Position numbers and translations under genes: made by a program. A model generated the notes under the pieces. That model was given only the letters and a program-made list of their open reading frames with translations. It did not search any database and was not told where the DNA came from. A stretch of 64,000 nucleotides of DNA from Candidatus Fraserbacteria bacterium (GTDB lineage Bacteria; Bipolaricaulota; Bipolaricaulia; RBG-16-55-9; DRXL01). This document shows, in pieces, positions 1 to 51,345 of the stretch; position 1 is the stretch's first letter; every line of letters starts with the position of its first letter. The DNA is taken from contig CAMTVK010000006.1 of the NCBI GenBank assembly GCA_947085185.1, positions 34,839-98,838 on the forward strand, written 5' to 3'.

Positions 1-914
1 TTGAGCGCGCGCTGCTCGTAGTTGAGCCTTCCCAAGGTATCGGCGTCGCGATAGGGCTTTCTGAGCGCGGCGTTGCGTGCCCCAATCGAGCCGTCAGCGA
101 AGAATTTGATCGCGCCCAGTCTTAAAAATTCATCGCCAAAGCCGGTGCCCATCCCCAGGGCAATGAAGTGATTTAAATAGTGCACTTCGATGTTGAGGCG
201 CACACGAAGCTGAAGCCGATGGGCTTGATGCAAAGCGATATACGCTCGGACGTGTTCGGGTTTGGCGATGTCATGGATCGCCGTCACACCCAGCTTATGG
301 GCAAGTCTTATCCCGGCTAAGATCGCTTCGCCAATCTGCTCATGAGACGGCTGCAGTCTCTGCAAGAAATCCCAAGCGGTCTGCTCACGCAGCAGCCCAG
401 CAGCCTCGTCGAATTCGCCGGCACGGGGCGTCACCGAGATCTTTCGAAGAGCTACACTGTTGGCACAGAGCATATGCCCGCAGACGCGCACGAGCACCAC
501 CGGATGGTGGGGCGCGATCATATCCAAGTCCGCTCTCGTGATATAGCGTCGTTCGGGCCAGCAGGACTCGTCCCAGCCGCGCCCCAGCACCCAGTGATCG
601 CGTTCTGTCTGGGCGATCCGCGCACGCACAAGCTCGAGCGCTTCGCCCAGAGAGCGCGGTGCGCTTAAGTCCAGATAATATCCAGACTCCCTCAGCCCTA
701 CACTGACTAAGTGCATGTGCGCGTCGATAAACCCTGGGAGCACCGTCTTGCCGTGAAGGTCTTCGATGCGAGTCTGTGGTCCAGCGAACTTGCGGATCTC
801 TTCGGTGCGTCCGACGGCGACGATCTTGCCGTCGCGCACGGCGAGGGCTTGGGCGCGGCCCGATGAGCCCGTGTCAATATGCGCGTTGACCACGAGGAGA
901 TCTGCCCAAAGCAT
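1..914 (-). CDS. Amidohydrolase-family metal-dependent hydrolase (YtcJ-like), C-terminally truncated by window edge
   Basis: Minus-strand reading frame from ATG at 914 to window start translates to MLWADLLVVNAHIDTGSS...GFIDAHMHL...FFADGSIGARNAALRKPY, typical of amidohydrolase-3 proteins. Not in the ORF track because it runs off the edge. Confidence 0.7.
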   Translation of the reverse strand, partial: MLWADLLVVNAHIDTGSSGRAQALAVRDGKIVAVGRTEEIRKFAGPQTRIEDLHGKTVLPGFIDAHMHLVSVGLRESGYYLDLSAPRSLGEALELVRARIAQTERDHWVLGRGWDESCWPERRYITRADLDMIAPHHPVVLVRVCGHMLCANSVALRKISVTPRAGEFDEAAGLLREQTAWDFLQRLQPSHEQIGEAILAGIRLAHKLGVTAIHDIAKPEHVRAYIALHQAHRLQLRVRLNIEVHYLNHFIALGMGTGFGDEFLRLGAIKFFADGSIGARNAALRKPYRDADTLGRLNYEQRAL

Positions 915-1060
915 AAGAGATTTTATTATAGCTGGCGAGGCTTGGCTCGACAACTGTAGTGGCAATGGCTCAAGAGAGCCGGGCATCCCCTCAGGGGCAT
1001 GACTGTGGCAGAGTGCTCAGATTTGTCAAACGACATCTCTGGGCTTATACTAAAGACACG

Positions 1061-1630
1061 ATGACCCTGGCCAATATCGTTACCGCCGTGCGCTTGCTCT
1101 GTATCCCACTTGTGATAGCGCTCTTCTTTCGTGGGCCTCTGTGGCTCTTTTACACCGTGCTCTTGAGTGTGCTTGTGAGCGATCTTGTTGACGGGGCGCT
1201 GGCGCGCGCCCAGCGCCAGATCACTGAGTTGGGCAGGATCCTCGACCCTGTCGCTGATAAGGCGCTCTTTCTCAGTCTCTTTCTCGCTCTGGTCATCCGC
1301 GGGGATCTCTCTGTGGGGGTGCTTATAGCCTTCGCTATCTCCCAGGGGATTTTGATCTTCGGTGCCCTTTGGCTTCGCTGGAGGATGGCACGCTGGGTGA
1401 TCATCGAGGCGCGTCCGCTGGGCAAGGCCGCGTCTACTTTGCTCTCCCTGGGCTTAGTGATCACAGTGTTGGCCCCTCTGATCAATCCTGAGCACGGGGG
1501 TGTGCTGGGGCGCGCTCTCTTATATAGCGGTGTGGCCCTCTCCTACGGGGCGCTGCTCGACTATATTTTCGTGGTGCGGCTCCGCATACAGCGCGGCGAA
1601 CTCCGGCGGGAGCGGAGCCACCAGCTCTAA
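1061..1630 (+). CDS. CDP-alcohol phosphatidyltransferase (PgsA-like phospholipid synthase)
   Basis: ORF 959..1630; multi-TM protein with the DLVDGALAR...G...D...D CDP-OH phosphotransferase motif. ATG at 1061 preferred because MTLANIVTAVRL matches the usual N-terminus. The track's first M is a GTG at 959. Confidence 0.7.
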   Translation: MTLANIVTAVRLLCIPLVIALFFRGPLWLFYTVLLSVLVSDLVDGALARAQRQITELGRILDPVADKALFLSLFLALVIRGDLSVGVLIAFAISQGILIFGALWLRWRMARWVIIEARPLGKAASTLLSLGLVITVLAPLINPEHGGVLGRALLYSGVALSYGALLDYIFVVRLRIQRGELRRERSHQL

Positions 1631-2491
1631 GGGCTCCTGGGTCACCGGGTGCGCGAGCCTCATCTGCCACGCATGGAGCATCAGGCGCTCCCAGCGCGTC
1701 TTCGATGTCCCGTACAGCTCATCGCCCATGACGGCATGGCCGATGGCCTTGAAGTGTGCCCGAATCTGATGGGTCCTCCCGGTGAGCGGGCGCACCAAGA
1801 GGAGCGTCGTCTGAGAGAATCTCTTTAGAACGCGAAACTCTGTGATAGCCGGCTTGCCTGTGGGGAGGATTTTCATGCGGCGACGCTGGGCGGGATCGCG
1901 CCCGATGGGGCCTTCGATCCGCCCCTCATCTTCTTGGATCTGACCCCACACGAGCGCCAGATAGAGCTTTTCGATCTCTCGGTTCTTGAACTGTTCGATC
2001 AACTTCAGATACGCCGCGTCGCTTTTGGCTACGATGAGAACCCCGCTCGTCCCCTCGTCCAACCGGTGGACGATCCCCGGTCGCCGCGGGGCTCCAAAGC
2101 TCGCGAGGGTGCAGTGACTGAGCAATTGATTGACGACGGTGCCGCGCGGGTGTCCCGCCGCGGGGTAGACGACCATCCCCGAGGGCTTATCAACAGCAAT
2201 AAGGTGCTCGTCCTCGTAGAGCACCTTAAGCGTGAACGGCTCAGGTTCTTCTGAGATATCTGAGGCTCTGTCGGGGAGTTCTATCTCGATGACGTCGCCT
2301 TGGCGCACGCGCAGGCCGGCCCGCGCCATGTGCTCGTTGAGCAAGACCGCGCCCGCCCGGATGAGCGCTTGCAGGCGCGAGCGCGTCAGGGTGGGATCGT
2401 TCAGCTTCTGCAGTAGCCAGAGATCGAGCCGAGTGCCGTCCTCATCGGCGGACACGCGAAAGATCAGTCGCACGGGTCTCTCCTGCTCCAT
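1520..2491 (-). CDS. rluD: RluA-family 23S rRNA pseudouridine synthase (RluD-like) with N-terminal S4 domain
   Basis: ORF 1520..2524. HRLDEGTSGVLIVAKS catalytic motif, PLTGRTHQIRAH motif, S4-like N-terminus. Start may be 2524 or 2491. Convergent ~110 nt overlap with the 3' end of the upstream CDS. Confidence 0.8.
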   Translation of the reverse strand: MEQERPVRLIFRVSADEDGTRLDLWLLQKLNDPTLTRSRLQALIRAGAVLLNEHMARAGLRVRQGDVIEIELPDRASDISEEPEPFTLKVLYEDEHLIAVDKPSGMVVYPAAGHPRGTVVNQLLSHCTLASFGAPRRPGIVHRLDEGTSGVLIVAKSDAAYLKLIEQFKNREIEKLYLALVWGQIQEDEGRIEGPIGRDPAQRRRMKILPTGKPAITEFRVLKRFSQTTLLLVRPLTGRTHQIRAHFKAIGHAVMGDELYGTSKTRWERLMLHAWQMRLAHPVTQEPLELVAPLPPEFAALYAEPHHENIVEQRPVGEGHTAI

Positions 2492-2534
2492 TGCGCTGCG
2501 CAAGCCTTGCGAGTATAATAACATTGATATTGTA

Positions 2535-2996
2535 ATGATTTCTCCGTTAGAAGTCGAGATCCAGAATGAGGCGGAACGTATTGCCCGGGCCCACGGGGTG
2601 GAACTCTATTGGCTTGAAGTGCGAGCCTCGGGGCCGCGCTGGCAGGTTGTGATCTATATTGACCGAGCCGGAGGAGTGACGATCGACGATTGTGAGCGGG
2701 TGAGCCGCGCCCTGGAGGAGCCGTTGGATGCCTTGATTGACCATAGCTACGAGCTAGAAGTCTCTTCCCCGGGGATAGATCGGCCGCTGCACACCCGCGC
2801 TCACTATTACAAAGCCCTGGGCAAGCCCGTAGAGCTGCGCCTGCGACAGCCGTGCCATGGCCAAAAAGTCCTGCAAGGGAAGCTGCATGGCCTCATAGGA
2901 AACACGATCTTTCTCTCAGATGTCCACGGCCAGACGGTGCAGCTCTCTCTCGATGAGGTGCAATCGGCCCAGGTGATCGAGAGCCGGTTTCTCTGA
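2535..2996 (+). CDS. rimP: Ribosome maturation factor RimP
   Basis: Internal ATG of ORF 2232..2996 gives MISPLEVEIQNEAERIARAHGVELYWLEV..., a typical RimP of ~150 aa immediately upstream of nusA. The upstream part of the track ORF is Ser/Arg-rich read-through and is not credible. Confidence 0.8.
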   Translation: MISPLEVEIQNEAERIARAHGVELYWLEVRASGPRWQVVIYIDRAGGVTIDDCERVSRALEEPLDALIDHSYELEVSSPGIDRPLHTRAHYYKALGKPVELRLRQPCHGQKVLQGKLHGLIGNTIFLSDVHGQTVQLSLDEVQSAQVIESRFL

Positions 2997-3019
2997 GTGC
3001 AGGAGCGTGACGATCTCCT

Positions 3020-3994
3020 ATGAATATCGAGTTTCTTGAGGCGTTAGAAGAGATGGCCAAGGAAGAGGGCATCGAGCGCGAAGACCTCTACGAGGCCGTC
3101 AAGAAGGGCCTCAGAGTCGCCTATATCGAAGAATTTGGCCCGGCCACCAATCTCCGGATCGAGATTGACCGCACCTCAGGGGATATTCACTTAGTTGTGG
3201 ACGGCGAGGCAAAAGATATTAAGCTCACGGATTTTGGGCGCATCGCCACGCGCAAGGCCGAGGAGACCATCAAGAACGAGATCATCGCCAAGCGCCGCCA
3301 GAAGATATTAGAGCGCTATCAGAGCCGGGTGGGACAGATCATCAGTGGGCATGTCCATCGCTTTGTCGGGGCTGATGTGTGGATCAATCTTGGGCAAGCC
3401 GAGGCGCTCCTGCCCGAATCTGAGAGAATCCCCGGAGAGCGCTATCGTGTGGGCATGGTGCTCAAAGCGTATCTGATGCGTGTCGAGCGCACTCATGGTG
3501 ATCCCAAGATCATTGTGTCGCGTGCTGCCAAGGAGTTCGTGCACAAGCTGTTAGAGCTGCAGGTGCCGGAGATCGAGCAGGGGCTGCTGCGCATCGAGGC
3601 GATCGCGCGTGAGCCGGGGGTGCGCACCAAAGTCGCCGTGCGCTCGCTCACGGCGGAGCTGGACCCCGTCGGCACGTGCGTTGGTGCTGGGGGCAGCCGC
3701 ATCAAAGAGATCGTGCGAGAGCTGGGTGGGGAAAAGATTGATATTATTCGGTGGAGTTCGGATGTGCGCGAACTCATCAAAAACGGGCTGGAGCCCGCAA
3801 CCGTGCTCCAGATCGAGCTGGACGAAGCGCACAAAGAGGCTCGTGTGCTCGTCCCCGCTTCGGAGTTGTCGCTGGCCATCGGCAAGGGTGGCCAGAACGT
3901 GCGCCTCACTGCGAAGCTCACCGGCTATAAGATTGACGTCACCAGCCCAGAAGAACCGAAAAAGAGTGGTGCAGAGCCAGCTTCCCCATCGTGA
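3020..3994 (+). CDS. nusA: Transcription termination/antitermination factor NusA (short form without C-terminal AR domains)
   Basis: N-terminal RNAP-binding domain, S1 domain and two KH domains (GxxG: IGKGGQNVRL). Conserved rimP-nusA order. Confidence 0.9.
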   Translation: MNIEFLEALEEMAKEEGIEREDLYEAVKKGLRVAYIEEFGPATNLRIEIDRTSGDIHLVVDGEAKDIKLTDFGRIATRKAEETIKNEIIAKRRQKILERYQSRVGQIISGHVHRFVGADVWINLGQAEALLPESERIPGERYRVGMVLKAYLMRVERTHGDPKIIVSRAAKEFVHKLLELQVPEIEQGLLRIEAIAREPGVRTKVAVRSLTAELDPVGTCVGAGGSRIKEIVRELGGEKIDIIRWSSDVRELIKNGLEPATVLQIELDEAHKEARVLVPASELSLAIGKGGQNVRLTAKLTGYKIDVTSPEEPKKSGAEPASPS

Positions 3995-4000
3995 CCGATC

Positions 4001-6832
4001 ATGCGTGCTGCGCTGTTACACGGGATCTATCGGCTGGTACGCCGACGGGCCTGGCTGGTGCTGCTGAGCGCGGCCCTCCTCAGCAGCGCTGCGCTCTTCT
4101 ATATTCGCGACCTGCCCATGCGCAGCTCATTCTTAGATATCGTGCCCCCAGGCGATGCGATCCTCACCAAGTTTCAAGAGCGCGAAGAGATCATCACAAA
4201 AAACGACGCTATTGATATTATCTTGTCGCTCCAAGACCCAGAACACTCCCCTCGAGATGCCGAACGCCTTCGGGTGGCTGCAGAGTATATCGCGCAGCAG
4301 CTCGCTCAGATTCCGGAGATCGTCTCGGTCAGCTTCACCAAAGATATTCAGACTCGGCGCGGCGACGAGCTGCTCTCGCTGCGCGACGAGATCTTTGTGA
4401 AGCTGCGGGAGTACCAAGAGCGCCTGCGCGGCGTTCTGCCTGCGTCAGGGGCCACATCCCCAGCGACGGCCGTGCCGGGGGTGCAAGATCTCATCCGTCT
4501 CTATGCCCAGATCAACACGGAGCTGGAGCGCATCTTCGGCGCGGAGCTGGACTGGCGACGCCTCGCCCTCAACCCCCTGGAGCTGGTCAAACGCTTCGAA
4601 GAACTCAAAAGACTCAACCAAAGCGTCAAAGAAGAGTTCGATCGCGTCCCAGGGGTCATCCAGAATGCCGATCACTTGGTGGCCGACTTGCTCCAAACCG
4701 TGAACGAAATCCATGAGACGATCACGAAGCTCTTGACCTGGCCGCAAGAGCTCTATCTCTCTCAAGACGGGACGCGCTTGCTCCTCAAGGCGCGCCCGCG
4801 CTCCAGCTCCCAGCGCAGCTTAGAGTACAACCGCGCCGTCACTCGCGCCGTGCAGGAGACCCTGCAATCGCTGAAGCTCGACGCCCAGGGGATCAGCTGG
4901 GGCCTCACCGGCCCCTACGTGATCGCCGCGGAGACCAACCATCAGTTGAACGTGGACATGCGCAACACTACTCTTATTTCGGCGATCGGCGTCATGGTCG
5001 TCATCATCGTCACGCTGCGGCAGTTTTTCTATTCCATCTTAGCGTTGATTGTGCTCTTCCTTGCGCTCATCGCCACGCTCGCTTGGGCGAAGTTCGTCAC
5101 CAATGGGCTGAACTTGGTGACGTCATTTCTCCCCCCGCTGATCTTGGGGCTGGGGATAGACTACGGGATCAATTTTATCGCGCATTTTCTTCATGAGCGT
5201 CGCTGCGGGCGTCGGTTCGAAGCGGCTATCCAATCTGCGATCGTGCACAAGGGCAGCGCGCTGATCACAGCGTCGTTGGCGACGGCGTGCGTGCTCTTCG
5301 GGCTGATGATCTCCAGCTCTCCGGGGCTGTACGAGATGGGGATCATCGCTGGGGTTGGGGTTCTGTTAGCTCTGTCTGCCACGTTGCTCATCCTGCCCGC
5401 GTTGATGATCGTCTCGCACATTATGCTGCGGCGGCGTGTGCGGGCGCGCGCTCAAGGGGCGCCGTCGCCTCCCCAGCGCCCTTCAGAATCTGAACATTTC
5501 TGGCGCTTGGCCCGTTGGCCCATCGTGTTCGTGACTCTTGGGGGCAGTCTCTTTATGTTCACCCAAGCTGTGCACGTGGGGTTTCGCTTCGCCGATGAGG
5601 AGCTGACCCCGAAAGACTTGCCGTCAAGACTCGTGCAGCAGATCGCGCGGCGCGACTTCGATATGGGGACTTCGGGCTTGGCTGAGTATTTCTTGTTCTT
5701 CGTGCCAAACTTGGAAGAGCTGCGCCGGGTCAACGACGGTCTCGCGAAGCTGAAGGCGCAAGGGTACATTAATGCTGTGGCTTCTCTTGTGATGTTTCTG
5801 CCCTCTGATCCTCAAGAAGCTGAGCAGTTCTTTCAGGGGGTTTCGCTCAGCTTAGAGCAAGACCTGCAGCGCGCGCGTTCTGAGATTGAGCGCCAAGGCC
5901 AAGAACTGCAGCGCCTCCAAGACCTGACGGCCCAGATCGCTCGGCTCAAGAGCAACTTCACGCGCATCCTTGACTTAGTAGCCCTCACGGGCACAGGGGA
6001 GAACATCGCTCCGGACATCCAAGCGCAGATCGCCCAGCTTGAGGGGATCGAAGCGAGCATCCAAGGGTTGGAAGCGACCAGCCAACGCTTGGGAGAGTTG
6101 CGCGATCGTCTCACCAAGCTGAACGAACGAGTGAGCGCGCTGCTCCAGAAGATCGCAGAGCTCCAGCAAGTCCAAGGGGTGCTCCAAGCTTTACCCAAAG
6201 ATCTTCAAGAGCGCTTCGTCACAGCAGAGCGCGAGTTCGTGCTCTACGCCCACCTGAAGCGCACCACGATCAATGATCCCAAAATATACAGTGAGTTTAT
6301 CAATGCTGTACGGACGTTCAACGCCGATTTTCTCGGCTACTCCATGATCCAAGATCGCTTGGAGCGCTCGATGAAGCGTGACTTTCAAATCTCGACAGTG
6401 CTCGCTACTGCGATCATCCTTGGTATTCTCGGTGTGGGGTTGGGATGGCGTTGGGCGCTCGTGGGGGTTGTCCCGGTGGGATTGGGGTTCTTATGGATGC
6501 TGGGGATGATGCGGCTGTCCGGGCTCAACTTTAATTTCGCGAATATCATCATCTCGTCGTTGCTCATCGGCAACGGCGTTGATTACGCAGTCTATCTCTT
6601 GCACAGTTTCTTAGCGGACCGGCAGGTGGGGAGTGCTTGGAGAAAGACGGCAGCGCCCATTGTAGGCTCGGCGCTGACGACCATGGTCAGCTTCGGCAGT
6701 CTGCTCTTTGCGGCGACGCCAGGGCTGAGAGTTTTCGGACTGTCGGCGCTGTACGGCATCGGCTTTACTACATTGTTCACGCTCTTCTTTCTCCCCGCTG
6801 TGCTCTCTTTTTCTTGGCAAAGAGCGGATTGA
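4001..6832 (+). CDS. MMPL/RND-superfamily membrane transporter with large coiled-coil extramembrane insert
   Basis: 943 aa. One N-terminal TM, a large loop, a five-TM bundle (aa ~325-470), a second large loop with an extended coiled coil (aa ~560-760), and a second five-TM bundle (aa ~795-940). This is the 1+5/1+5 topology of RND/MMPL exporters. It sits where infB normally follows nusA. Confidence 0.65.
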   Translation: MRAALLHGIYRLVRRRAWLVLLSAALLSSAALFYIRDLPMRSSFLDIVPPGDAILTKFQEREEIITKNDAIDIILSLQDPEHSPRDAERLRVAAEYIAQQLAQIPEIVSVSFTKDIQTRRGDELLSLRDEIFVKLREYQERLRGVLPASGATSPATAVPGVQDLIRLYAQINTELERIFGAELDWRRLALNPLELVKRFEELKRLNQSVKEEFDRVPGVIQNADHLVADLLQTVNEIHETITKLLTWPQELYLSQDGTRLLLKARPRSSSQRSLEYNRAVTRAVQETLQSLKLDAQGISWGLTGPYVIAAETNHQLNVDMRNTTLISAIGVMVVIIVTLRQFFYSILALIVLFLALIATLAWAKFVTNGLNLVTSFLPPLILGLGIDYGINFIAHFLHERRCGRRFEAAIQSAIVHKGSALITASLATACVLFGLMISSSPGLYEMGIIAGVGVLLALSATLLILPALMIVSHIMLRRRVRARAQGAPSPPQRPSESEHFWRLARWPIVFVTLGGSLFMFTQAVHVGFRFADEELTPKDLPSRLVQQIARRDFDMGTSGLAEYFLFFVPNLEELRRVNDGLAKLKAQGYINAVASLVMFLPSDPQEAEQFFQGVSLSLEQDLQRARSEIERQGQELQRLQDLTAQIARLKSNFTRILDLVALTGTGENIAPDIQAQIAQLEGIEASIQGLEATSQRLGELRDRLTKLNERVSALLQKIAELQQVQGVLQALPKDLQERFVTAEREFVLYAHLKRTTINDPKIYSEFINAVRTFNADFLGYSMIQDRLERSMKRDFQISTVLATAIILGILGVGLGWRWALVGVVPVGLGFLWMLGMMRLSGLNFNFANIIISSLLIGNGVDYAVYLLHSFLADRQVGSAWRKTAAPIVGSALTTMVSFGSLLFAATPGLRVFGLSALYGIGFTTLFTLFFLPAVLSFSWQRAD

Positions 6833-11464: not shown

Positions 11465-13702
11465 TCAGCGCGGTTGGGCAAGCAAGTCCTTGAGCTGTGC
11501 TTCCATCTGGGCGAGCGCGGCGGCTTGGGCTTTGAGCCGAGTGAGCTCATCGGGATCGGTGAGCCGGCGGCTGCGCTCGATCTCTCCGATGCGTCTGAGA
11601 ATCTTCTCTTTGAGCTGGGCGATGACGGCCAGACCGCGCTCGAACTGGGCGCGGGCGGCCTCAAGTGCGCCGCGCTCGCGATGCAGCATCCCCTGCACTA
11701 AATACGCTCGGGGATAGTCGGGATGCTCTTGCAAAAATTTTGCTAACTCACCCCACACCAGCGTGCGGTCCCCTTGAGAGACGAGCACGAGCACCCGCTG
11801 CATAAATTCGGCTTCCAAACGCATAGCGGGTTCTGGGTCCAGGCGCAAGAGCTTCTGCAAGTGCTCGCGAGCGCGCTGGGTCTCCCCCAGGCGTAAGTCC
11901 AGTTCGGCTAACTGAATATACGTGTTCTCTACGGGATAAGACTTAAGAGAGCGCTCAAAGAGCTCGCGAGCGCGTTGGAGCTCCCCTTGCTCTCCGTAGA
12001 TGACCCCTAGATAATAGAGAGCTTTCCCGGGCGCGATCGCCAAAGCGACGCTGCGCTCTAGCGCGATGCGCGCCAACTCATACCGAAGATTATTGATTTC
12101 AGCTTCCCCTTCATCGAGAGCGATGTCCGCTTGCCAATCGCGATACGCAAAGACCGAGACAGTCACAGCCAACACAAGAGCCGTGACACCCACAGCGATC
12201 TTGGCAGACGATCCGAGCGTCACCGTGGGTGCCGGGCCGAGCAGCGGGCGCGTATAGAGCAGACTGATCAAGAGCACGAGGTTGAGCTCCGATGCCGGCA
12301 GGTGCAACGGAAAGCTCACGAGCGCATCCGTGAGGAACGCGACGAGACCTGCGCCGAGCGCCACCACCCAAAGCCGGCGCTCAGGGGACTCTGACGAGCG
12401 CACGAAGCGATGCGCTCTCGCTATCAGGGTGCCCGCAAATATCCCGAGAGCTACCAGGCCGATCAGCCCCAGCTCGGCGATCAATTGCACGTAGTCGTTA
12501 TGGGCTTGGATCGCCCGGGGCAGATAGAAATTATACTGCTGTCCCAGCGGGGTCTCCTTGAAGCGCGCTTTATATTCTAAGAATTCGACTTTATAGTCCC
12601 CCAAGCCCACCCCGACAAACGGGTGCGCCTTGAGCATTTCATAAGCGATCCACCAGTTCCAGGTGCGCGCGATCCCGGAGTTCTCCTCCCAGAGGCGCTG
12701 AAAGAATTTGGCGATCTGTTCGATAGGTGACGCCTCAAGGGGGGCCGCGCGGCCCAGAAGGGAGTTCAGCGGTCCCGGCGGCGACTGCAGCCAGACCACA
12801 AGCGCCAAGAGAATCACGACAGCGAGCACCCAACGGCGTTGGCTCGCTATCGCTGATCTGAGCTGAAAGATCAGCATCCCCCCAAAGAAGAAGATCACAG
12901 AGGCCAAAGCAGCGAGATACGCCCCGACGGAGTTTGCTGCCACAAGGGCCGCGACCATCACAATTAAGAGGGCTACAAGCCCAAGCCGCACCACGCGACT
13001 CTGTGTCATCACCGAGAGAAAGACCCCGGGCACGAGCAGATGCGCCAAGAACCCCGCCAGATAATTGGGATTCCCAAACGTCGAGATCATCGCCGGGCTG
13101 CTCCCTAAAAACCCCGGCGGCCCCGGCAATCGCCCATAATACTGCAGGAGCCCATAAACTGAAGCAATGGCCGCCGACAGCAAGAGCGCGCCCAGAAGAA
13201 TCTTTATGTCGCGCTCACTCTCGACGGTGTTGACGATGAGCACACCCAACAGCCCAAAATAGATCAGCCCGACGAAGCTTATCAGACTTAAAGCGAGATT
13301 CTCAGCATTGATCAGCGAGAGTGCACACGCCCCCAAGACTCCCAGAGCCGGCCAAGCAAGCTGTGTCACGCTGAGCTCGGTCTGAGCACGCAAGAAAATC
13401 TCTAAAGCCCATAAGACTACTAACGTTGAGATGCCCCCATAGAGCACGGCGCTTTTAGTGTAGCCGTACTCGGTGTTGGGCAGATAGATCACAATGGGCA
13501 CGGCGAAGACGAGCGCGACTAAGAGCCAGAAGCGCAGCCGGGGAAGCGACACTAATCGCAAGCGCGCTGCAGCGCGCTCCAGGAGCGCCCGTGCGACCTC
13601 TCCCCCGGCCCCTCCCCTAAAGAGGGAGGGGAGCTTCTTCTCTCTAGGAGAGATTCTGGAGTACTTAGGTTGCTTATAGGCTTTCCGTGTTCTCCGGGCC
13701 AT
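11465..13702 (-). CDS. O-antigen ligase (Wzy_C/WaaL-like) polytopic membrane protein with C-terminal TPR repeats
   Basis: About 12 TM helices followed by a ~250-aa TPR-like region (AYRDWQADIALDEGEAE...). ATG at 13702 (MARRTRKAYKQ) chosen. The track ORF begins at an upstream TTG (13723) inside the repeat element. Confidence 0.65.
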   Translation of the reverse strand: MARRTRKAYKQPKYSRISPREKKLPSLFRGGAGGEVARALLERAAARLRLVSLPRLRFWLLVALVFAVPIVIYLPNTEYGYTKSAVLYGGISTLVVLWALEIFLRAQTELSVTQLAWPALGVLGACALSLINAENLALSLISFVGLIYFGLLGVLIVNTVESERDIKILLGALLLSAAIASVYGLLQYYGRLPGPPGFLGSSPAMISTFGNPNYLAGFLAHLLVPGVFLSVMTQSRVVRLGLVALLIVMVAALVAANSVGAYLAALASVIFFFGGMLIFQLRSAIASQRRWVLAVVILLALVVWLQSPPGPLNSLLGRAAPLEASPIEQIAKFFQRLWEENSGIARTWNWWIAYEMLKAHPFVGVGLGDYKVEFLEYKARFKETPLGQQYNFYLPRAIQAHNDYVQLIAELGLIGLVALGIFAGTLIARAHRFVRSSESPERRLWVVALGAGLVAFLTDALVSFPLHLPASELNLVLLISLLYTRPLLGPAPTVTLGSSAKIAVGVTALVLAVTVSVFAYRDWQADIALDEGEAEINNLRYELARIALERSVALAIAPGKALYYLGVIYGEQGELQRARELFERSLKSYPVENTYIQLAELDLRLGETQRAREHLQKLLRLDPEPAMRLEAEFMQRVLVLVSQGDRTLVWGELAKFLQEHPDYPRAYLVQGMLHRERGALEAARAQFERGLAVIAQLKEKILRRIGEIERSRRLTDPDELTRLKAQAAALAQMEAQLKDLLAQPR

Positions 13703-13728
13703 TCCGTGTTCTCCGTGATTCAAAAATA
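13685..13728 (-). repeat. Copy 1 of ~45-nt CACGGA-hexamer array element (minus-strand sense TGAATCACGGAGAACACGGAATGGCCCGGAGAACACGGAAAG)
   Basis: Four CACGGA/CCCGGA hexamers spaced 9-10-9 bp, spanning the stop of the upstream CDS and the ATG of the downstream CDS. About 85% identical to the copy at 50827..50872. Confidence 0.5.
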
Positions 13729-14409
13729 CCCTAACGCTCTGAGGCGCTCCATCAGCCCCTCTTTGTCGGTGCCACGCCCGGCCCGCTCCGCCACATCTCT
13801 ATCGGGGACGGGCTTGGTGCACGGCACACACCCCAAACTGCGATAGCCCTTATCGTAGAGAGAGCAGTACGGCAATTGATATTTTTTAATATACTCCCAG
13901 ATGTCGCGCTCGCGGAAGTGCAGGATGGGATGAACCCGAACGTGATCGGCCCTTGGAGAGAGATAGAGCTCTTGGGAGCGCGCTTGGTGCTCGTCCCAGC
14001 GCACGCCCGTAATAAGCGCGCGCCATCTATATTTGTGAATCGCTTGAGTGAGCGCCTCCGTCTTGAGGCGCTTGGTGCAAAAGAGACAAAACTGGGGATC
14101 GTCGGTGGGCGGGGCTTGCTCGAGGGCTTGGCGGTTTTGATAGACGACGAGCTGGAAGCCCCACTCGCGAGCAAGACGATCCCGATAGTCATAGACTTCA
14201 GGGAAGTCTACGGTCGTATCGATGTGCAAGACGGGGATGGGGATGCGCCCCTTGCCGGCCCGCCGCACCAGATCGAGCGTCACGAGAGAATCCTTCCCGC
14301 CCGTAAACGCCACGGCCATCTCGCTCCCAAACTCTGCCAGCGCTTGCTTGAGAATTTCTAAGCTCTTCTGCTCGCGCTCAAGAAGCGTCCACGAAGAGAT
14401 ATCGTTCAT
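13720..14409 (-). CDS. PAPS-reductase/ATP-sulfurylase-family protein (CysH-like phosphoadenosine phosphosulfate reductase)
   Basis: AFTGGKDS PP-loop motif and C-terminal LGCVPC cysteine pair. ATG at 14409 (MNDISSW...) has a reasonable upstream spacing; the track ORF extends to 14553. Confidence 0.7.
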   Translation of the reverse strand: MNDISSWTLLEREQKSLEILKQALAEFGSEMAVAFTGGKDSLVTLDLVRRAGKGRIPIPVLHIDTTVDFPEVYDYRDRLAREWGFQLVVYQNRQALEQAPPTDDPQFCLFCTKRLKTEALTQAIHKYRWRALITGVRWDEHQARSQELYLSPRADHVRVHPILHFRERDIWEYIKKYQLPYCSLYDKGYRSLGCVPCTKPVPDRDVAERAGRGTDKEGLMERLRALGYF

Positions 14410-15712: not shown

Positions 15713-16120
15713 TCACTTGCTCTTCTTAAACTCAGGAAGTCCCAAGCACCGCCGCAACAGCTGGCGCACTTCTTTCGCAATCTTGACAGCTTCCTTAGCT
15801 TCTTCTGCAGTCGGTTCCTCCCCAGGGTAGCGAGGCATGACGCTATATGCGTTGAGCATCTCCAACAAAGGATGGAGTGATTGCAACAAAACATCTTGTT
15901 TCTGACACAGCTGGAGCAGCCGCAAGAGATCGTGTGTCTTGGGGAAGGCTACTCGCCTCTGCACCAGAAATGCTTTCAAATATTTCTCTGCACTTTGCTG
16001 GGCATGAAAACAAATACTGTTAGTCAATTTCTTTTTTTGTCGGCTCAAGATCAAAGCGACCTGGAAATCTTCTTCAGCCTTCTGAACCCAGGCGCGCACG
16101 TCCTCGCGAGGAGCGCTCAT
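15713..16120 (-). CDS. HEPN-domain protein (HepT-like toxin partner of the adjacent MNT)
   Basis: ~135 aa all-helical protein, adjacent to and overlapping an MNT nucleotidyltransferase gene. ATG at 16120 chosen. Overlaps the MNT gene by ~47 nt. Confidence 0.65.
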   Translation of the reverse strand: MSAPREDVRAWVQKAEEDFQVALILSRQKKKLTNSICFHAQQSAEKYLKAFLVQRRVAFPKTHDLLRLLQLCQKQDVLLQSLHPLLEMLNAYSVMPRYPGEEPTAEEAKEAVKIAKEVRQLLRRCLGLPEFKKSK

Positions 16121-16466
16121 AGAGCACCCAGCCTTGGCGTACCACCTCCTGCAGGAACGGATCAAACCAGGTATTCAATCGCTTTGCGAATTCCGACGGC
16201 GTCAGAACGATCAAATCGAGAGGGTAGCGGCGCGGCTCAAAGTATCGCGAGACGAGCTGCTGCCGCCTGGCCAAGCTCTTTTCCGAGGTCGCAAGGACAA
16301 TGAGAAGATCTAAGTCACTCTCAGTGCTCGGCTTCCCATAGACGTGCGACCCAAAGACAATTACTCTCTCAGCGTTGAGCTCATGCACGAGCCGGCGCAC
16401 ACACGCTCGTAGCCAAGCTTCAACCGATGACGCTAGCTTAATAAACCTCTTCTTCTCTTCCCACAT
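16074..16466 (-). CDS. Minimal nucleotidyltransferase (MNT/MntA-like antitoxin)
   Basis: VIVFGSHVYGKPSTESDLDLLIV, the canonical GS...D.D NTase motif. 130 aa. Located 20 nt downstream of the S8 protease gene on the same strand. Confidence 0.75.
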   Translation of the reverse strand: MWEEKKRFIKLASSVEAWLRACVRRLVHELNAERVIVFGSHVYGKPSTESDLDLLIVLATSEKSLARRQQLVSRYFEPRRYPLDLIVLTPSEFAKRLNTWFDPFLQEVVRQGWVLYERSSRGRARLGSEG

Positions 16467-20651: not shown

Positions 20652-22073
20652 TCAATCAAGAAGGCTCTCCAACAAGCTCTCATAAGTCTGAACAGCTACG
20701 GATAAGTCAAACTGTGCTATGCGCTCGCGACCCCTGTGAGCCAGCTCCTGCCGCAGCTGCCTGTCTAAGAGCAGCTGCTCTATCCCATGAGCTAAAGCCT
20801 TGGGATCACCTGAGGGCACAAGCAAACCCGCTCGCCCTTCGTCTAAATACTCTCGTACACTTGGTGAGCAATCGGTTGCGAGCACAGGAAGCCCCAATGC
20901 CATCGCCTCGCCGATGACATTGGGCAGTCCTTCTGTCAAGGACGAGAGTACAAAGAGATCTGCGCGTGCCATGTACTTCCAAGGATTTTCCTGGAAGCCC
21001 AACAGCGCAACTCGATCAGTTAAGCCCAATTCTACAATCAAGTTCTCTAAAGCACTTCGTTCCTCACCCTCACCGATGATCACGAGGTTCACTTTCATTG
21101 AGAGCTGTGCCACCGCCCGAATCAGTATATCAAACCCTTTGAGCTTGACGAGTCGGCCCACAGCTATGAGGAGCGGTTCCCTTCGCTCATCGAACCAGGG
21201 GTGGAGGACTGGCTCAGCTGCTTGTACACATACGTTTTGCACGTCAATAGGGTTGTAGATTACAACAATCTTCTCTGCAGGCAGACCGAAGTTCTCGATG
21301 AGATCTCGTTTGATGCCCTGCGCCACCGCTACTATCACATCGGCTCGTGGGTAAAGGAGCCGAACAAGCCAGCGCAATAGGAAACGCTCATAGCGCTCAA
21401 GTTTGCTGTGTTGAAGAATCCGGCTAGTCACATCATGGACATTGACCACAACTTTCAGGTGACGATCAAAGAAAAGCTTCGCCAGAATTGCGATGATATT
21501 TGACAATGTGATTGAGCTGACTACGACTCCACAGCCGCTCTCCCGCGCTACCGCCGCGAGTCGGCGCGCCTGCCACAGCAGAGAATAGCAGTAGTAAGCA
21601 GGTTTAATCTTGCGTAACCAACGTAAGAGCGTGCCGATCAATCTTAAAGGCACACTTGCAACAAAGTAAGTTGTTGTGAGTATCACTTGCGAAAAACGCT
21701 GCTTTGCACGAGACAGGAGAGCTTTGATCTGCCAGAGGAAAGACCTGAATGCCCTTTGGGGAGGTTCTGTAACTGATATAAAGAAGGCTCTAACTGCTTG
21801 TATGCCCTTCCCCAATACTCTCAAGGAGCGGACTAATCGAGACGCTTTATTCTCAACAATAGAAAGCGCGAAGATCTCCAATAGAGGCACACTGGTGCTG
21901 ACTATTCTCAGGAGCGGACCGCGCTTCAGTTGCAGAAGCAGGATAGGTCGATGGGACCTCAAATTGTTGACGTAATTGATGCAGACGCGCTCGGCCCCTC
22001 CGGCCTCTAACGTTGGGATGAAGAAAAGAACTCTTTTTTTAATCTGCTCCAAATCCGCTTGTGGCATAGTCAC
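20652..22073 (-). CDS. Glycosyltransferase family 4 (GT4) with extended N-terminal region
   Basis: C-terminal GT-B domain with the E-x7-E region (SLTEGLPNVIGEAMALGLPVLATD). Confidence 0.75.
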   Translation of the reverse strand: MTMPQADLEQIKKRVLFFIPTLEAGGAERVCINYVNNLRSHRPILLLQLKRGPLLRIVSTSVPLLEIFALSIVENKASRLVRSLRVLGKGIQAVRAFFISVTEPPQRAFRSFLWQIKALLSRAKQRFSQVILTTTYFVASVPLRLIGTLLRWLRKIKPAYYCYSLLWQARRLAAVARESGCGVVVSSITLSNIIAILAKLFFDRHLKVVVNVHDVTSRILQHSKLERYERFLLRWLVRLLYPRADVIVAVAQGIKRDLIENFGLPAEKIVVIYNPIDVQNVCVQAAEPVLHPWFDERREPLLIAVGRLVKLKGFDILIRAVAQLSMKVNLVIIGEGEERSALENLIVELGLTDRVALLGFQENPWKYMARADLFVLSSLTEGLPNVIGEAMALGLPVLATDCSPSVREYLDEGRAGLLVPSGDPKALAHGIEQLLLDRQLRQELAHRGRERIAQFDLSVAVQTYESLLESLLD

Positions 22074-23245
22074 ACAACCTCCATGATAAGTTGCTCGTAT
22101 TGTTTGACTATCTTAGGAGCATCAAAGTCTTTAGCCCGTTGAGGACCTAGCTCAGCGAGCTTAGTGCGCAGTTCATGATCCTGTAACAACTTGAGCATTG
22201 CGGCGGCCAAAGCTTCTTCATCTGCTGGTGGCACTAAAACCCCGTACTGCCCGCCTTGTAAGATTTCAGCAGGCCCCGAAAGACAATCGGTCGAGATGAC
22301 AGGGCAACCGCAAGTCAGAGCCTCCAAAATGACGTTGGCAAGGCCCTCCACTAGTGACGGAAGGACCAGTGCAGTTACCTTGCTCATGTAGCTAAAAGGA
22401 TTGGGTGTAGCTCCAATAAAGTCAACTTTGTCTTCCACATGCAAGGCTTTCGCCAGCTCTTGCAGTGCCCCTTTCTCTTCTCCTTCACCAACGACTAGTA
22501 ACCGTGCTGGCTTCTCTGAATTTGCGATTTTTAAAGCATTGAGCAAGATATCTACACCCTTGAACTTGACGAGTCTACCGACAAAGAGGAAGATCGGAAC
22601 CTGAGCTGCAAACCAAGGGTGAGTGACAGGTTCTTGACTTAAATCCTGGATTTTTCGGACATCTAAAGGGTTATAGATCACATGCAAATGGTTGTGGGGA
22701 ATCCCCCATTTGGTGGTAAGGTCATCAGCAATTCCTTGACTAATACAAACGATTGGATTGAGCTCTCGCAGGCGAGGTGCCCAAAACATCCGAAACTCCC
22801 TGTGGGCGGGATTCTGCATGAGGGTATTTGAAAGGTGGCTGGCTAAGCGGGCGATTACTTTTACTTTGTGGCGCAGGCTAGCCTTATAAGCCACGAGGGA
22901 GGTTAAGAAATTCGTTGTTAAAACGCAATCTATTTGCCGTTGGACAAGATGATGTGTTAATCTGCTTGACAACAATTCTAGCCACACGAAGGATTCGCAC
23001 TCTCCCAGCAAGCTCAGAGGGATGTCGACGACCAACTTTTCCGAAGGTGGTAAGGGTTGCGAATTCAACACAAACACGGGGATACCGGATGGAAGGGAGT
23101 AAAATGACTGACCTTCATGGAAAACTGTCAACTCAACCGCTATGTGCGAGCTGACATGCTGCAAGAAGGTCGAGACGAACCGCTCCACCCCGCCGGGAAC
23201 ATGCAGGGTCTCGGTCAGCAGAGTCATCTTAACTTTACGTGCCAT
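22070..23245 (-). CDS. Glycosyltransferase family 4
   Basis: VGRLVKFKGVDILL...SLVEGLANVILEALTCGCPVISTD GT4 signature. Translationally coupled to its neighbours (4-nt overlaps). Confidence 0.8.
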   Translation of the reverse strand: MARKVKMTLLTETLHVPGGVERFVSTFLQHVSSHIAVELTVFHEGQSFYSLPSGIPVFVLNSQPLPPSEKLVVDIPLSLLGECESFVWLELLSSRLTHHLVQRQIDCVLTTNFLTSLVAYKASLRHKVKVIARLASHLSNTLMQNPAHREFRMFWAPRLRELNPIVCISQGIADDLTTKWGIPHNHLHVIYNPLDVRKIQDLSQEPVTHPWFAAQVPIFLFVGRLVKFKGVDILLNALKIANSEKPARLLVVGEGEEKGALQELAKALHVEDKVDFIGATPNPFSYMSKVTALVLPSLVEGLANVILEALTCGCPVISTDCLSGPAEILQGGQYGVLVPPADEEALAAAMLKLLQDHELRTKLAELGPQRAKDFDAPKIVKQYEQLIMEVV

Positions 23246-24422
23246 AAGTGTCTCGTATGACCTGCACGTACTGATTTACGATCTTCCGAGCTTCGAAATC
23301 CTGAGCCCGTTGTCGGCCTTGTTCGGCAAGCTGCTGTCGCAACGCAGGATCACTTAGCACTTTGGTGATAGCCTCTGCAAGGGCTCGAGCATCAGCCACC
23401 GGCACCAAGAGTCCATAACGCCCGCCACCCAGGATCTCAGCGGGACCGGAGGGACAATCTGTTGCAATCACGGGACAGCCGCAAGCAAGAGCCTCTGCAA
23501 TTACATAGCCAAATCCCTCATACAAAGAAGACAAGACGAACACCGTCGAACGGGCAAAATACTTGAACGGGTTCTTTTGCTTGCCTGCAAACCAAATGCA
23601 GTGTTGAATACCTAATTCCGCAGCTAAATCCTCTAATCTTTGGTGCTCGTCCCCTTCACCTAGAAGGATCAAACGTGCAAGGTTACCCTGCTTGTGGACA
23701 AGGCTTAGTGCACGGAGCAGATAGTCAAAACCTTTCTGCGGAGCTAAGCGACCTGCTGCCGTGATGATCGGCGTGCATTCAGCCATCCAAGGATGGTCAA
23801 CAGGCTCTGACACCAGTTTCTCGATCTGTTGAAGATCCAGAGGATAGGGGATCACTGTGATCTGCTGTTGGGTAACTTTGAAGTTATGCATAAGATCGGA
23901 AGCTACGCCTTCGCTTGGACAAACAATTTTGTCGGCCTTCTGAAGATGCTCACGCCCCAAGAACATGTAAAGCGGGCCTTTGGGAGCATGGGAAAGCATT
24001 GTGGAAGCGTGATTATCCACGGAGCCTACGAAGCAGATCTCCTTCGGCCAATACTTGCGTGATAGCAAACACAACGTGGACGCGAAGAGTTCGCGTGCGA
24101 ACACGACATCCGGCCTCCTTTGGTGTACCAGTTCGGCCAGCTTAAGGGCAGTTAGCTCAAGCCAAATAAAGTCTTCACGGGCTCCCAAGAGTTGAATCGG
24201 GATATCCACGCGAATCGAGTCGACATGCGGCAGCGGATTGCGCTCCAAGATGTGCGTTTGAATTTCCAGAGGGATAGGGTAAAAAACCTCTCGATTAAAG
24301 ATCATGACTAATTCGACGTCAAATAAACTGCGATCCAAATATCTCAAAAGAATGGTTATATTACGTCCTACTCCGCCCAGAGGCAAGCCGTGGGTGACGA
24401 TCATCAGCTTAATTTTCCTCAT
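23235..24422 (-). CDS. Glycosyltransferase family 4
   Basis: AGRLAPQKGFDYLL...SLYEGFGYVIAEALACGCPVIATD. Confidence 0.8.
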   Translation of the reverse strand: MRKIKLMIVTHGLPLGGVGRNITILLRYLDRSLFDVELVMIFNREVFYPIPLEIQTHILERNPLPHVDSIRVDIPIQLLGAREDFIWLELTALKLAELVHQRRPDVVFARELFASTLCLLSRKYWPKEICFVGSVDNHASTMLSHAPKGPLYMFLGREHLQKADKIVCPSEGVASDLMHNFKVTQQQITVIPYPLDLQQIEKLVSEPVDHPWMAECTPIITAAGRLAPQKGFDYLLRALSLVHKQGNLARLILLGEGDEHQRLEDLAAELGIQHCIWFAGKQKNPFKYFARSTVFVLSSLYEGFGYVIAEALACGCPVIATDCPSGPAEILGGGRYGLLVPVADARALAEAITKVLSDPALRQQLAEQGRQRAQDFEARKIVNQYVQVIRDTYGT

Positions 24423-25623
24423 TATTGCTCTCCTCCCCAGACAGCAGCCTCAAGATTCTTTTTGTATACCGGCTAGTTATTTGGGGGGCATCAAAGGCTA
24501 AGGCGCGCGTTGGAGCCAGCCGGGCAAACTGTTCTCTGAGCTGCGGGTCTCTCAGTAGCTTCAGAATTCCTTCGGCCAGCGCTGGGGGACTTTCCATCGA
24601 CACTAAGAGGCCGTACTGTGTTGTCCCCTCAGCTAAGATTTCCGATGGCCCATACGGGCAGTTGGAAGCCACGATGGGGCAGCCGCAAGCCAGCGCTTCC
24701 ACCAAGGCGTAACCGAAACCTTCCCACCGAGAAGGAAAGGCGAATACCGTACACTTCTGCATGTACTTAAAAGGGTTCTGTTGGAAGCCTAAAAAAGCGA
24801 CATGAGGTGCTATGCCTAACTCCAGAGCGAGTTTGCGAAGGACGTCCTCCTGCGGACCTTCCCCGATGATGACACATCGCGCCGGAAGCTCCGCCCTGAC
24901 GCGAGCGAGCGCTTGAAGCAGGAGATCAAACCCTTTTTGCGGGGCAAGCCGACCCACCGCCAAGATAACAGACTCCAGCCCAGAGAAGAAGGGATGGTCC
25001 ACACTTTCTTTTGCTAGTTGCTGCACAGCTTTGACATCAATAGGGTACTGGATCAAAGTGATCTTTTCGGCTGGTATGCTGTAGCTTTGTTGTAACACTT
25101 CAGCGACACTGGCACTGGCGGTGATGAGACCATCTGCTTCACATAGTCTTGTTCGCGCCAGCTGCTTGTACAGCTCCCCATGCGACGCGGCACGAAAGTC
25201 GCTGGCAATCTCGGCACCAGCGACGACTATCACTTTGATAGAAGGAGCATGCTTTTTGGCGTATAAGCTAAGCATTCCGCAAAACAAGTTGAATGCCAAA
25301 ACCACTTGCGTCTTCTGCACCGTTATCACATCGGCCAATTTATGAGCCATGACTTCAAGCCAAGCAAGATCAGCGCTATAGCTCAGTGATTGTAAGGGTA
25401 TTTCAACATGTATTGATGGTATATTAGGCATTGGAGTCTTTTCTAGAACATGCCAGGGCACGTCACTGGGGATAGGGAAGAAGGGCTCTTGGTCAAAGAT
25501 GGTAACGAGTTCGATATCTAGCATCTTTCTGTCGAGATGGTGCAACAAGATGGAAACACACCGCTCCATACCCCCAACGCTTAAGGTTGGTGAGATGAGT
25601 ACAACCTTTGTTTTATGAGCCAT
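24409..25623 (-). CDS. Glycosyltransferase family 4
   Basis: VGRLAPQKGFDLLL...SRWEGFGYALVEALACGCPIVASN. MAHKTKVVLI start preferred over the track's upstream start at 25686. Confidence 0.8.
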   Translation of the reverse strand: MAHKTKVVLISPTLSVGGMERCVSILLHHLDRKMLDIELVTIFDQEPFFPIPSDVPWHVLEKTPMPNIPSIHVEIPLQSLSYSADLAWLEVMAHKLADVITVQKTQVVLAFNLFCGMLSLYAKKHAPSIKVIVVAGAEIASDFRAASHGELYKQLARTRLCEADGLITASASVAEVLQQSYSIPAEKITLIQYPIDVKAVQQLAKESVDHPFFSGLESVILAVGRLAPQKGFDLLLQALARVRAELPARCVIIGEGPQEDVLRKLALELGIAPHVAFLGFQQNPFKYMQKCTVFAFPSRWEGFGYALVEALACGCPIVASNCPYGPSEILAEGTTQYGLLVSMESPPALAEGILKLLRDPQLREQFARLAPTRALAFDAPQITSRYTKRILRLLSGEESNNEEN

Positions 25624-35088: not shown

Positions 35089-35098
35089 ACGATCCGTT

Positions 35099-50788: not shown

Positions 50789-50826
50789 ATAAAAACTCCT
50801 TCTCGATGAGAATCACGGAAAACTGC

Positions 50827-50872
50827 TTTTCCCCGTGCTCTCCGTGGGCTCATTCCGTGCCTTCCGTGATTC
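50827..50872 (-). repeat. Copy 2 of ~45-nt CACGGA-hexamer array element (minus-strand sense TGAATCACGGAAGGCACGGAATGAGCCCACGGAGAGCACGGGGAAAAG)
   Basis: Lies between the dtd stop and the rpmF start, in the same orientation relative to the downstream gene as copy 1. An 11-nt perfect inverted partner (GAATCACGGAA) sits ~45 nt further on. Confidence 0.5.
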
Positions 50873-50880
50873 AGATTCTA

Positions 50881-51345
50881 TCAAATTGGATTCGTCTTTG
50901 CAACCGGCGGGCTCTCGAGGATGAACGTCACTGGGCCGTCGTTGACTAAAGAGACCTTCATGCGTGCCCCAAAGATCCCGGATTCGACCTTCACCCCACC
51001 GCGACGGAGCTCTTGCAAGAAGAGCTCATAGAGCACGCGGGCGTGCTCTGGAGGCGCTGCCGCGTCGAAGCTGGGGCGCCGCCCTTTGAGCGTACTGCCA
51101 TAGAGCGTAAACTGCGAGATGACTAAGATCTCGCCCTGCACGTCTTTGACGGAGCGATTCATCTTGCCCGCGGCGTCCTCGAAGATCCTCAGCCCCACAA
51201 CTCGATCGGCCAAGAAGATCGCATCGTGCTCAGAATCGCCCTTGCCCACCCCAAGAAAGACTAAGAGCCCTGGGCCAATCTGCCCCACAATGCTCCCGTC
51301 AATCTCTACAGACGCTGCCTTGACGCGCTGCAGTACAAGGCGCAT
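50881..51345 (-). CDS. dtd: D-aminoacyl-tRNA deacylase
   Basis: MRLVLQRV...SQFTLYG...NDGPVT, the canonical Dtd motifs. 154 aa. Confidence 0.9.

Follow-up and report, generated by a model that had tools for sequence, protein, structure and literature searches.

Two CACGGA hexamer arrays in a Candidatus Fraserbacteria contig are probable decayed members of a dispersed palindromic repeat family

Two short arrays of CACGGA-type hexamers lie at gene junctions in a 64,000-nucleotide stretch of contig CAMTVK010000006.1 from Candidatus Fraserbacteria bacterium (assembly GCA_947085185.1, positions 34,839 to 98,838 of the forward strand; hereafter, the window). Both are read on the minus strand. Copy 1, at 13681..13724, separates a PAPS-reductase-family gene from a Wzy_C/TPR gene, and copy 2, at 50809..50875, separates dtd from rpmF. 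We find that both sites probably represent decayed members of a dispersed family of small palindromic repeats that is abundant in Candidatus Bipolaricaulota. The family is best filed as REP/MITE-like (repetitive extragenic palindromic, miniature inverted-repeat transposable element) and as previously undescribed.

A preliminary description, made from the letters of the window, had noticed the two arrays and had proposed a direct-repeat array for a transcription factor, a structured RNA leader, or a mobile miniature repeat. The last of these proposals is the one borne out by our results: the element recurs at over 100 unrelated intergenic locations in Bipolaricaulota metagenome-assembled genomes (MAGs) and metagenome contigs. 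As primary identity, neither a dedicated transcription-factor array nor a locus-specific RNA leader is supported; copies favor the 3' ends of genes and spacers between convergent genes, and no covariation or strand asymmetry was seen.

Identification of a repeat family

The preliminary description held that the two copies are too similar to have arisen by chance, and a profile hidden Markov model (HMM) supports this judgment. The model was trained on 66 arms, all from contigs other than the window. It finds exactly two copies in the window, copy 2 at 50875..50833 (E 9e-12) and copy 1 at 13724..13683 (E 5.2e-9), and no other match below E 0.6. Across the 64 kb, just two places carry at least three C[AC]CGG[AG] hexamers within 45 nt on one strand. 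In a global alignment, the two copies share long identical blocks interrupted by three short gaps. The arrays therefore exist as first reported, but their coordinates required correction: copy 1 had been placed at 13685..13728, about 4 to 6 nt off, and copy 2 was displaced by a few bases. Each copy has the reported four hexamers in direct orientation; their spacings are 9 / 10 / 9 nt for copy 1 and, for copy 2, 9 / 13 / 9 nt. However, the array is not a self-contained direct-repeat unit, but one arm of a palindrome.

The intact element is a hairpin of 85-100 nt that is almost wholly inverted repeat, with two inverted arms and a loop of about 10 nt. Each arm comprises a head, T(T/A)GAATC, and four CACGGA hexamers, for which the family-wide spacing is 9 / 11-13 / 9 nt; the arm can also be described as two copies of a double-hexamer unit of about 21 nt. 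Hexamer positions have an information content of about 1.9 bits, and the spacers 0.2-0.9 bits. Within the head, G occupies position -2 in 92% of cases and A occupies position -1 in 90%; position -3 is T in 51% or A in 25%, and earlier positions are T-rich. Roughly a quarter of heads across the family read TAGAATC, which is a good -10 hexamer pointing into the element. Predicted folding energies of full elements are about -45 to -55 kcal/mol. The flanks are T-rich on the 5' side and A-rich on the 3' side (TTT...AAA), and are reverse complements that extend the stem.

A scan of GTDB with a strict pattern and one genome per species gave 22 matches, among which four Bipolaricaulota MAGs have the palindrome in full (L004, L013, L020 and L022/L023; loci are cited by such numbers throughout). 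Those matches that share the head GAATCACGGA all come from Candidatus Bipolaricaulota MAGs and are all complete palindromes, consisting of four CACGGA units, a short loop and two to four TCCGTG units. Proteins most similar to the window PAPS reductase (88-90% identity) are named Bipolaricaulota or Bipolaricaulia, which places the source of the window in that phylum. A pattern scan of metagenome contigs gave at least 120 loci. Family counts cover the loci listed from that scan plus the genome loci; on this basis the repeat occupies at least 120 loci in Bipolaricaulota genomes and metagenome contigs, with at least 139 unique heads. Hexamer clusters among the loci listed (n = 158) include 58 full palindromes, 74 single arms and 17 asymmetric elements.

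No known RNA or repeat family accounts for the element among the sources that we searched. In Rfam searches of the window and 19 of the loci, only tRNA passed the gathering threshold and nothing matched the element; a permissive search, with E up to 10, gave nothing plausible around either window copy. In the searchable literature we found no description of the family, the matches being primers and unrelated papers. Two further candidates were dropped for lack of support, namely mimicry of a tRNA T-loop by the head (GTTCGAATC occurs in one copy only) and a parS/NBS-like site.

Position of the element relative to genes

For positional statistics, orthologous loci were collapsed to 139 unique heads. 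Among the loci listed, 80 heads face the end of a gene and 52 face a gene start. The genes beside the 139 heads are unrelated to each other, and include toxin-antitoxin pairs, secreted proteins and housekeeping genes; these genes almost never read into the element. The head triplet is itself the stop codon of the gene in 16 of the 80 gene-end heads, and 36 stops fall within 17 nt of the head. TGA heads terminate an open frame of at least 80 codons in 26 of 98 cases, compared with 6-7 of 103 in the other two frames. The frequency of TGA or TAG is similar in heads facing gene ends (46/80) and in those facing gene starts (28/52). Therefore, the stop triplet is a property of the element or of its target, and not a result of site-by-site selection.

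Convergent gene pairs make up 23 of 88 element-bearing spacers versus 65 of 463 background spacers (chi-square p 0.017), and divergent spacers are fewer than convergent ones among those that bear an element (10 versus 23). Where a single arm lies between co-directional genes, the sense orientation prevails (15 sense versus 4 antisense unique sites, p 0.019), with the head adjoining the upstream stop. The simplest reading of this bias is that an arm bearing a stop codon cannot be lost, and that the distal arm can.

Some contigs contain islands of small toxin-antitoxin-type operons (L039, positions 1-4544; L063; L137, positions 1-3300), with one element between operons every 600-1100 bp. By sequence inspection, the gene families in these islands are PIN, RelE-like, HicA/HicB, Uma2/DUF820-like and DUF433-type, and the cassettes are rearranged between related contigs. 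One lineage-specific subfamily of half elements in the islands has a conserved tail, AGCTAAGCGTCGCACGCGGCGCGTGGGCTT.

Copy 1: a half element that joins two coding regions

Copy 1 is a single-arm, or half, element recognized from its sequence, its hexamer cluster and the external-arm HMM. Its sequence on the minus strand at 13722..13681 is TGAATCACGGAGAACACGGAATGGCCCGGAGAACACGGAAAG. The head, TTTGAATC, forms the upstream end and is followed by CACGGA at 13717..13712, CACGGA at 13708..13703, a degenerate CCCGGA at 13698..13693 and CACGGA at 13689..13684. The element forms no hairpin (fold z-score +0.59), and retains a single arm, the one in which the upstream gene has its stop codon.

As reported previously, both copies lie at junctions between minus-strand genes, which were identified by Pfam searches. 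In the case of copy 1, the upstream coding sequence (CDS), at 13720..14409, matches PAPS_reduct (E 2.7e-45), and the downstream CDS, at 11465..13702, matches Wzy_C plus TPR. The TGA of the head (13720..13722) is the PAPS-reductase stop codon according to the list of open reading frames (ORFs) and to comparison of orthologues, and the reductase ends in LGYF at this TGA in the window, L146, L147 and L148. Recoding of the head UGA in the manner of a selenocysteine insertion sequence (SECIS) was considered and dropped; orthologous proteins stop at that residue as well, their codon being TAG or TAA.

The ATG at 13700..13702, between hexamers 2 and 3, is the likely start codon of the Wzy_C/TPR gene, as the preliminary description had suggested. 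Judged from the orthologous reading frames, the element would then encode the first seven codons, MARRTRK, of which hexamers 3-4 read A-R-R-T-R-K. The frame, M(R)ARRTRK, is preserved in the window, L146, L147 and L148. An indel of 1 nt distinguishes L147 from L148 immediately ahead of the ATG, yet leaves the downstream frame unaffected, which supports the assignment of this ATG as the start codon. Gene calls for Wzy_C in the relatives begin about 20 nt past the PAPS-reductase stop. The GGAG of hexamer 1 is located 8 nt upstream of ATG 13702, and may serve as the ribosome-binding site of the Wzy_C/TPR gene.

Orthologues of copy 1 were found via a homology search with the PAPS reductase. The gene order PAPS reductase, Wzy_C/TPR, SecA is conserved among the relatives. 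The half element is present in L146-L149, in which the reductase is 82-88% identical, and absent from L150 (75%) and L151 (67%), which have the same gene order. At every site that carries it, the reductase stops at the TGA of the head, and the Wzy_C frame opens with an ATG between hexamers 2 and 3. In these element-free relatives, the reductase ends with TAG (L150) or TAA (L151). The Wzy_C protein of L150 begins MPKPTKRTKPK, 2 bases after the PAPS stop, and the repeat therefore replaced an N-terminus of similarly basic character. Co-option of copy 1 as stop codon, start codon and N-terminal peptide is well supported.

The N-terminal coding region of the Wzy_C/TPR gene also contains a perfect GC-rich hairpin, CCCCTCCCCTAAAGAGGGAGGGG, on the plus strand at 13609-13631. 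The window protein is about 10 residues longer at this position than its orthologues in L146 and L147, and the hairpin may reflect a small palindromic insertion that kept the reading frame.

Copy 2: an asymmetric element at the dtd-rpmF junction

Copy 2 was delimited from sequence, HMM match and fold; its minus-strand sequence at 50873..50826 is TGAATCACGGAAGGCACGGAATGAGCCCACGGAGAGCACGGGGAAAAG. The hexamers of the 5' arm are located at 50868..50863, 50859..50854, 50846..50841 and 50837..50832, the last being CACGGG. What is left of the 3' arm is TTCCGTGATTC, at 50820..50810. The preliminary description had called attention to this 11-nt inverted partner, which is indeed present and represents a remnant of the second arm, but the 11-mer is not significant by itself (three matches in the window with at most one mismatch versus 1.19 expected, a number reached in 15 of 100 shuffles).

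Five related contigs carry a complete palindrome at the dtd-rpmF junction (L048, L059, L091, L118 and L134). In the window and the near-identical L001, about 28 nt are missing from the 3' arm, between two of its direct TTCCGTG units. The 3' arm has thus been shortened through a slippage-type deletion that left the base of the stem, GAATCACGGAA plus TTCCGTGATTC. The shortened hairpin has a predicted energy of -33.6 kcal/mol (z -2.0).

The upstream gene, dtd, encodes D-aminoacyl-tRNA deacylase (50881..51345, minus strand; Pfam Tyr_Deacylase, E 5e-59), and terminates with a TGA that precedes the end of the head by 10 nt. The downstream gene, rpmF, encodes ribosomal protein L32 (50591..50788, minus strand; Pfam Ribosomal_L32p on an identical product) and is preceded by a GGAG ribosome-binding site at about 50799..50796. 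A promoter scan, with 0.2 sites expected, gave one sigma-70-like site on the minus strand at 50875..50903, consisting of TTGCAA, 17 nt and TAGAAT with a TG extension. This promoter-like site covers the last codons and stop of dtd and a few bases beyond, and ends 2 nt before the head. Its hexamers are kept in orthologues (TTGCAA ... TAGAAT or TAAGAT), although four-fold degenerate sites differ by 36-55%. Transcription of rpmF would thus start at about the head, and the copy 2 hairpin would form the 5' end of the leader. Co-option of copy 2 as a leader hairpin is plausible.

The segment from the dtd stop to the head (50874-50883) reads TTTGA-TAGAATC-TGAATCACGG, in which a tandem pair of additional head-like fragments can be recognized. 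TAGAAT, one of this pair, doubles as the -10 box of the promoter-like site.

An ATG within copy 2, at 50853, had been noted as the start of a frame that overlaps rpmF. It does open such a frame, of 113 aa, but the ATG is missing from orthologous elements, and therefore the frame is not a gene. Upstream of dtd, a 208-aa ORF without a Pfam match (51351-51977, minus strand) is present in L002, L003, L048 and L059, and is missing from the otherwise syntenic L001, where dtd lies directly behind a divergently oriented phosphoglycerate mutase gene.

A proposed mobile or maintained repeat, and evidence against it

If the window sites are decayed members of a dispersed repeat family, a trans-acting DNA enzyme that recognizes phased hexamer pairs would spread the family or keep its copies uniform. 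The combination of conserved phased hexamers and free spacers leads us to infer a sequence-specific protein that recognizes the arms, as transposases with multi-site ends do. Elements decay via deletion between their own direct repeats, and copies are occasionally co-opted locally, as a stop codon, a likely start codon or, plausibly, a promoter-adjacent hairpin.

Several results weigh against this explanation. No transposase family was found among 960 clustered predicted proteins or among genes flanked by elements, which are mainly toxin-antitoxin modules and secreted proteins. A motif scan of 885 kb of loci revealed no Y1/HUH-like ORF, although a single-copy gene could lie outside these loci. 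There is no visible target-site duplication: no direct repeats occur in or beyond the flanks of full copies, and the TTT...AAA by the head seems to prolong the inverted repeat. The copies found at orthologous sites are stable and of long standing, with no sign of recent movement. The positional statistics carry some error, because gene calls on metagenome loci come from a rough in-house caller. Finally, the dtd-rpmF element diverges 2-4 times more slowly than four-fold sites (among full orthologues, 0.13-0.19 per site in the spacer versus 0.38-0.55 at dtd and rpmF four-fold sites), unlike a purely passive repeat. This slow divergence implies selection on the sequence or homogenization between copies.

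We also found no version of the element that bears cargo; outward-facing arm pairs enclosed just one small cassette. A blastn search with the consensus element against 72,556 plasmids gave no match.

Alternative explanations

Functions at the RNA level would provide a different primary identity for the element. The hairpin could protect mRNA ends, as a 3' barrier or, for rpmF, in a 5' cap-like manner, or the single-stranded CACGGA/GGAG motifs of half elements could hold ribosomes or a CsrA-like protein between cistrons. Elements do lie directly behind stop codons, and half elements between co-directional genes are mostly sense. The conserved promoter-like site that ends just before the head at rpmF, the retention of the stem base in the deletion form found in the window, and conservation beyond that of four-fold sites are also in agreement with such a role. 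CACGGA would fit CANGGA, the core of CsrA/RsmE sites. RNAs bound by CsrA/RsmA present several GGA motifs in hairpin loops or single-stranded regions; in full copies of the element, however, the GGA motifs reside in stems.

Other evidence likewise speaks against a primary role in RNA. For full hairpins, folding is as good on the antisense strand as on the sense strand (10 versus 10, Wilcoxon p 0.51). Spacer identity within elements is 0.60, compared with 0.63 for shuffled partners, and compensatory changes are lacking. RNAalifold analysis of the dtd-rpmF orthologues revealed no compensatory change in any of 31 predicted pairs (0/31 covary). Since these pairs are invariant or changed on one side only, this particular alignment neither supports nor opposes the structure. 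There is no terminator-like site at copy 2, and the element has no U-tract; its T-rich 5' and A-rich 3' flanks are the reverse of those of a bidirectional terminator, and set it apart from intrinsic terminators in general. The sense bias is more simply explained by the stop-bearing arm that cannot be lost. We therefore regard an RNA-level primary function as unlikely. As a secondary function, an RNA role is kept alive because of the promoter arrangement at rpmF, the sense bias and the slow divergence.

A second alternative is that the phased repeats form a DNA-binding array, at which a winged-helix, response-regulator-type or nucleoid protein controls the adjacent genes. The hexamers are strongly conserved and the spacers free, and phasing of 9 nt, close to a helical turn, would place paired sites on nearly the same face of the DNA. 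In addition, the hexamers of the half element are kept across the orthologues whose PAPS reductases are 82-88% identical. On the other hand, the 139 unique heads are beside unrelated genes, and gene ends and convergent spacers are preferred over the promoter-rich divergent ones (23 versus 10). Moreover, the arrays usually come as an inverted pair and so form a long hairpin, and a promoter-like site is found near copy 2 only. Control of adjacent genes is thus a rather improbable primary explanation.

The toxin-antitoxin islands of L039, L063 and L137, with their regularly interspersed elements, bring to mind integron-like recombination sites at the boundaries of gene cassettes. Integron attC sites are imperfect palindromes that overlap the stop codon of a cassette. 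The present elements resemble them in forming imperfect palindromes at the 3' end of short cassettes, in stop-codon overlap, and in their location between toxin-antitoxin cassettes. However, the termini read T(T/A)GAATCAC / GTGATTC(A/T)A and do not match the core sites RYYYAAC / GTTRRRY, the arms do not share one orientation, and the cassette-like arrays showed no integrase gene within them or nearby. Copies are also scattered chromosome-wide, including at housekeeping junctions such as dtd-rpmF and PAPS-Wzy. We consider an attC-like identity very improbable.

Chance resemblance or a private local duplication, with which the insignificance of the shared 11-mer alone would agree, has a negligible probability given the external-arm HMM matches, the copies in many other contigs and MAGs, and the conservation of both sites in relatives; the preliminary description had made its interpretation depend on finding further copies and such conservation, and its proposed refutation fails.

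Comparison with known repeats

Among known systems, the Bipolaricaulota repeats resemble REP sequences and their inverted doublets (REPINs) in being short, non-coding, extragenic and present in high copy number. In both, an inverted doublet makes a long hairpin, single units occur as apparent remnants, 3' gene ends and convergent spacers are preferred, and there is no target duplication. However, the REP unit is itself a palindrome of 20-40 nt with a GTAG or CGTC tag (PMC3733652). The arm described here is instead a tandem array of four hexamers plus a head, and GTAG is found in just 15 of 228 heads. Nor was a gene like RAYT (REP-associated tyrosine transposase) found in the 885 kb of loci, outside which a single-copy gene could lie.

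MITEs such as Correia elements of Neisseria, ERIC/IRU and RUP share with the family their terminal inverted repeats, short core and lack of coding capacity. They too are dispersed in intergenic regions, with occasional co-option as promoters or mRNA hairpins and possible fusion to coding sequence. The present elements differ in that no target-site duplication was seen, nor a parent insertion sequence with the same ends among 960 predicted genes or 72,556 plasmids. They differ also in being nearly all inverted repeat, and in having a stop-bearing head that abuts gene ends.

The organization of the arm finds an analogy in transposon ends with multiple binding sites. Several phased repeats bound by the transposase are present in the ends of Tn7, Mu, Tn5053/Tn402 and IS21, and in the sub-terminal AAACGG hexamers of plant Ac/Ds. 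As in these ends, each arm is built from a number of short direct repeats, whose cores are conserved and whose spacers are free, and about half of the heads start with TG. In contrast to these transposons, neither a cargo-bearing version nor a transposase was found for the Bipolaricaulota family.

Similar arrays in other phyla

The GTDB scan also detected CACGGAA/TTCCGTG hairpins in Rhodopirellula, Noviherbaspirillum, a Bacteroidales MAG, Wenzhouxiangella and two Actinobacillus genomes. Several of these loci from other phyla (L006, L009/L010, L014, L016 and L021) have multiple sites within 8 kb. We then scanned the viral contigs of IMG/VR for three tandem CACGGAA units, with two heptamers of the same composition as controls. 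At least 120 loci were obtained (L152-L271), and the control heptamers gave 81 and 114 loci; therefore, the raw count is unremarkable. Arrangement is more distinctive. Among the IMG/VR loci listed, an inverted partner within 220 nt accompanies 21 of 172 CACGGAA sites, versus 1 of 81 and 2 of 119 control sites, and at least two separate sites occur in 26 of 120 CACGGAA loci, versus 0 of 81 and 3 of 113 control loci. The arrays in other phyla and in viral contigs have a 9-nt period and a CCACGGAA head, with a stop triplet directly before the head in 15 of 74.

A speculative extension of these observations is that inverted-arm CACGGA(A) arrays constitute a cross-phylum class of repeats that abut stop codons, made or maintained by a conserved DNA enzyme as a counterpart to the REP/RAYT system. 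We consider this doubtful.

Other features of the window

Two HEPN plus nucleotidyltransferase (NTP_transf_2/Polbeta) gene pairs are present in the window, at 15713-16466 (minus strand) and 36434-37196 (plus strand), an arrangement that is typical of HEPN-MNT toxin-antitoxin systems. A third nucleotidyltransferase gene, at 35048-35449 (plus strand), is solitary. One copy of a 36-nt direct repeat (34461-34496 and 35051-35086; 92% identity, 590 bp apart) overlaps the start of this gene at 35048, and the other is just upstream of a 70-aa ORF without a Pfam match.

Four tandem paralogous genes of about 390-470 aa lie at 20652-25626 (minus strand), within a polysaccharide-synthesis cluster. Repeated blocks of DNA are common to these genes (families D1, D3 and D17 of a repeat scan), which probably encode glycosyltransferases.

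Implications

The repeats described here account for odd gene junctions in Bipolaricaulota MAGs, where they can supply stops, starts and short basic N-termini. They give rise to spurious ORFs as well, the 113-aa frame over rpmF being one example, and both effects are relevant to annotation. Three forms of repeat co-option are represented: a stop codon; a putative ribosome-binding site with a start codon and leader peptide; and a putative 5' mRNA hairpin at a promoter-like site.

Phased hexamer pairs and a stop-bearing head are unusual for small bacterial repeats, and would point to a specific protein that recognizes them. The interest of the finding is moderate, and the cross-phylum hint is the part that could raise it. 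If the look-alike arrays in other phyla did share machinery with the Bipolaricaulota family, they would represent a widespread and undescribed system.

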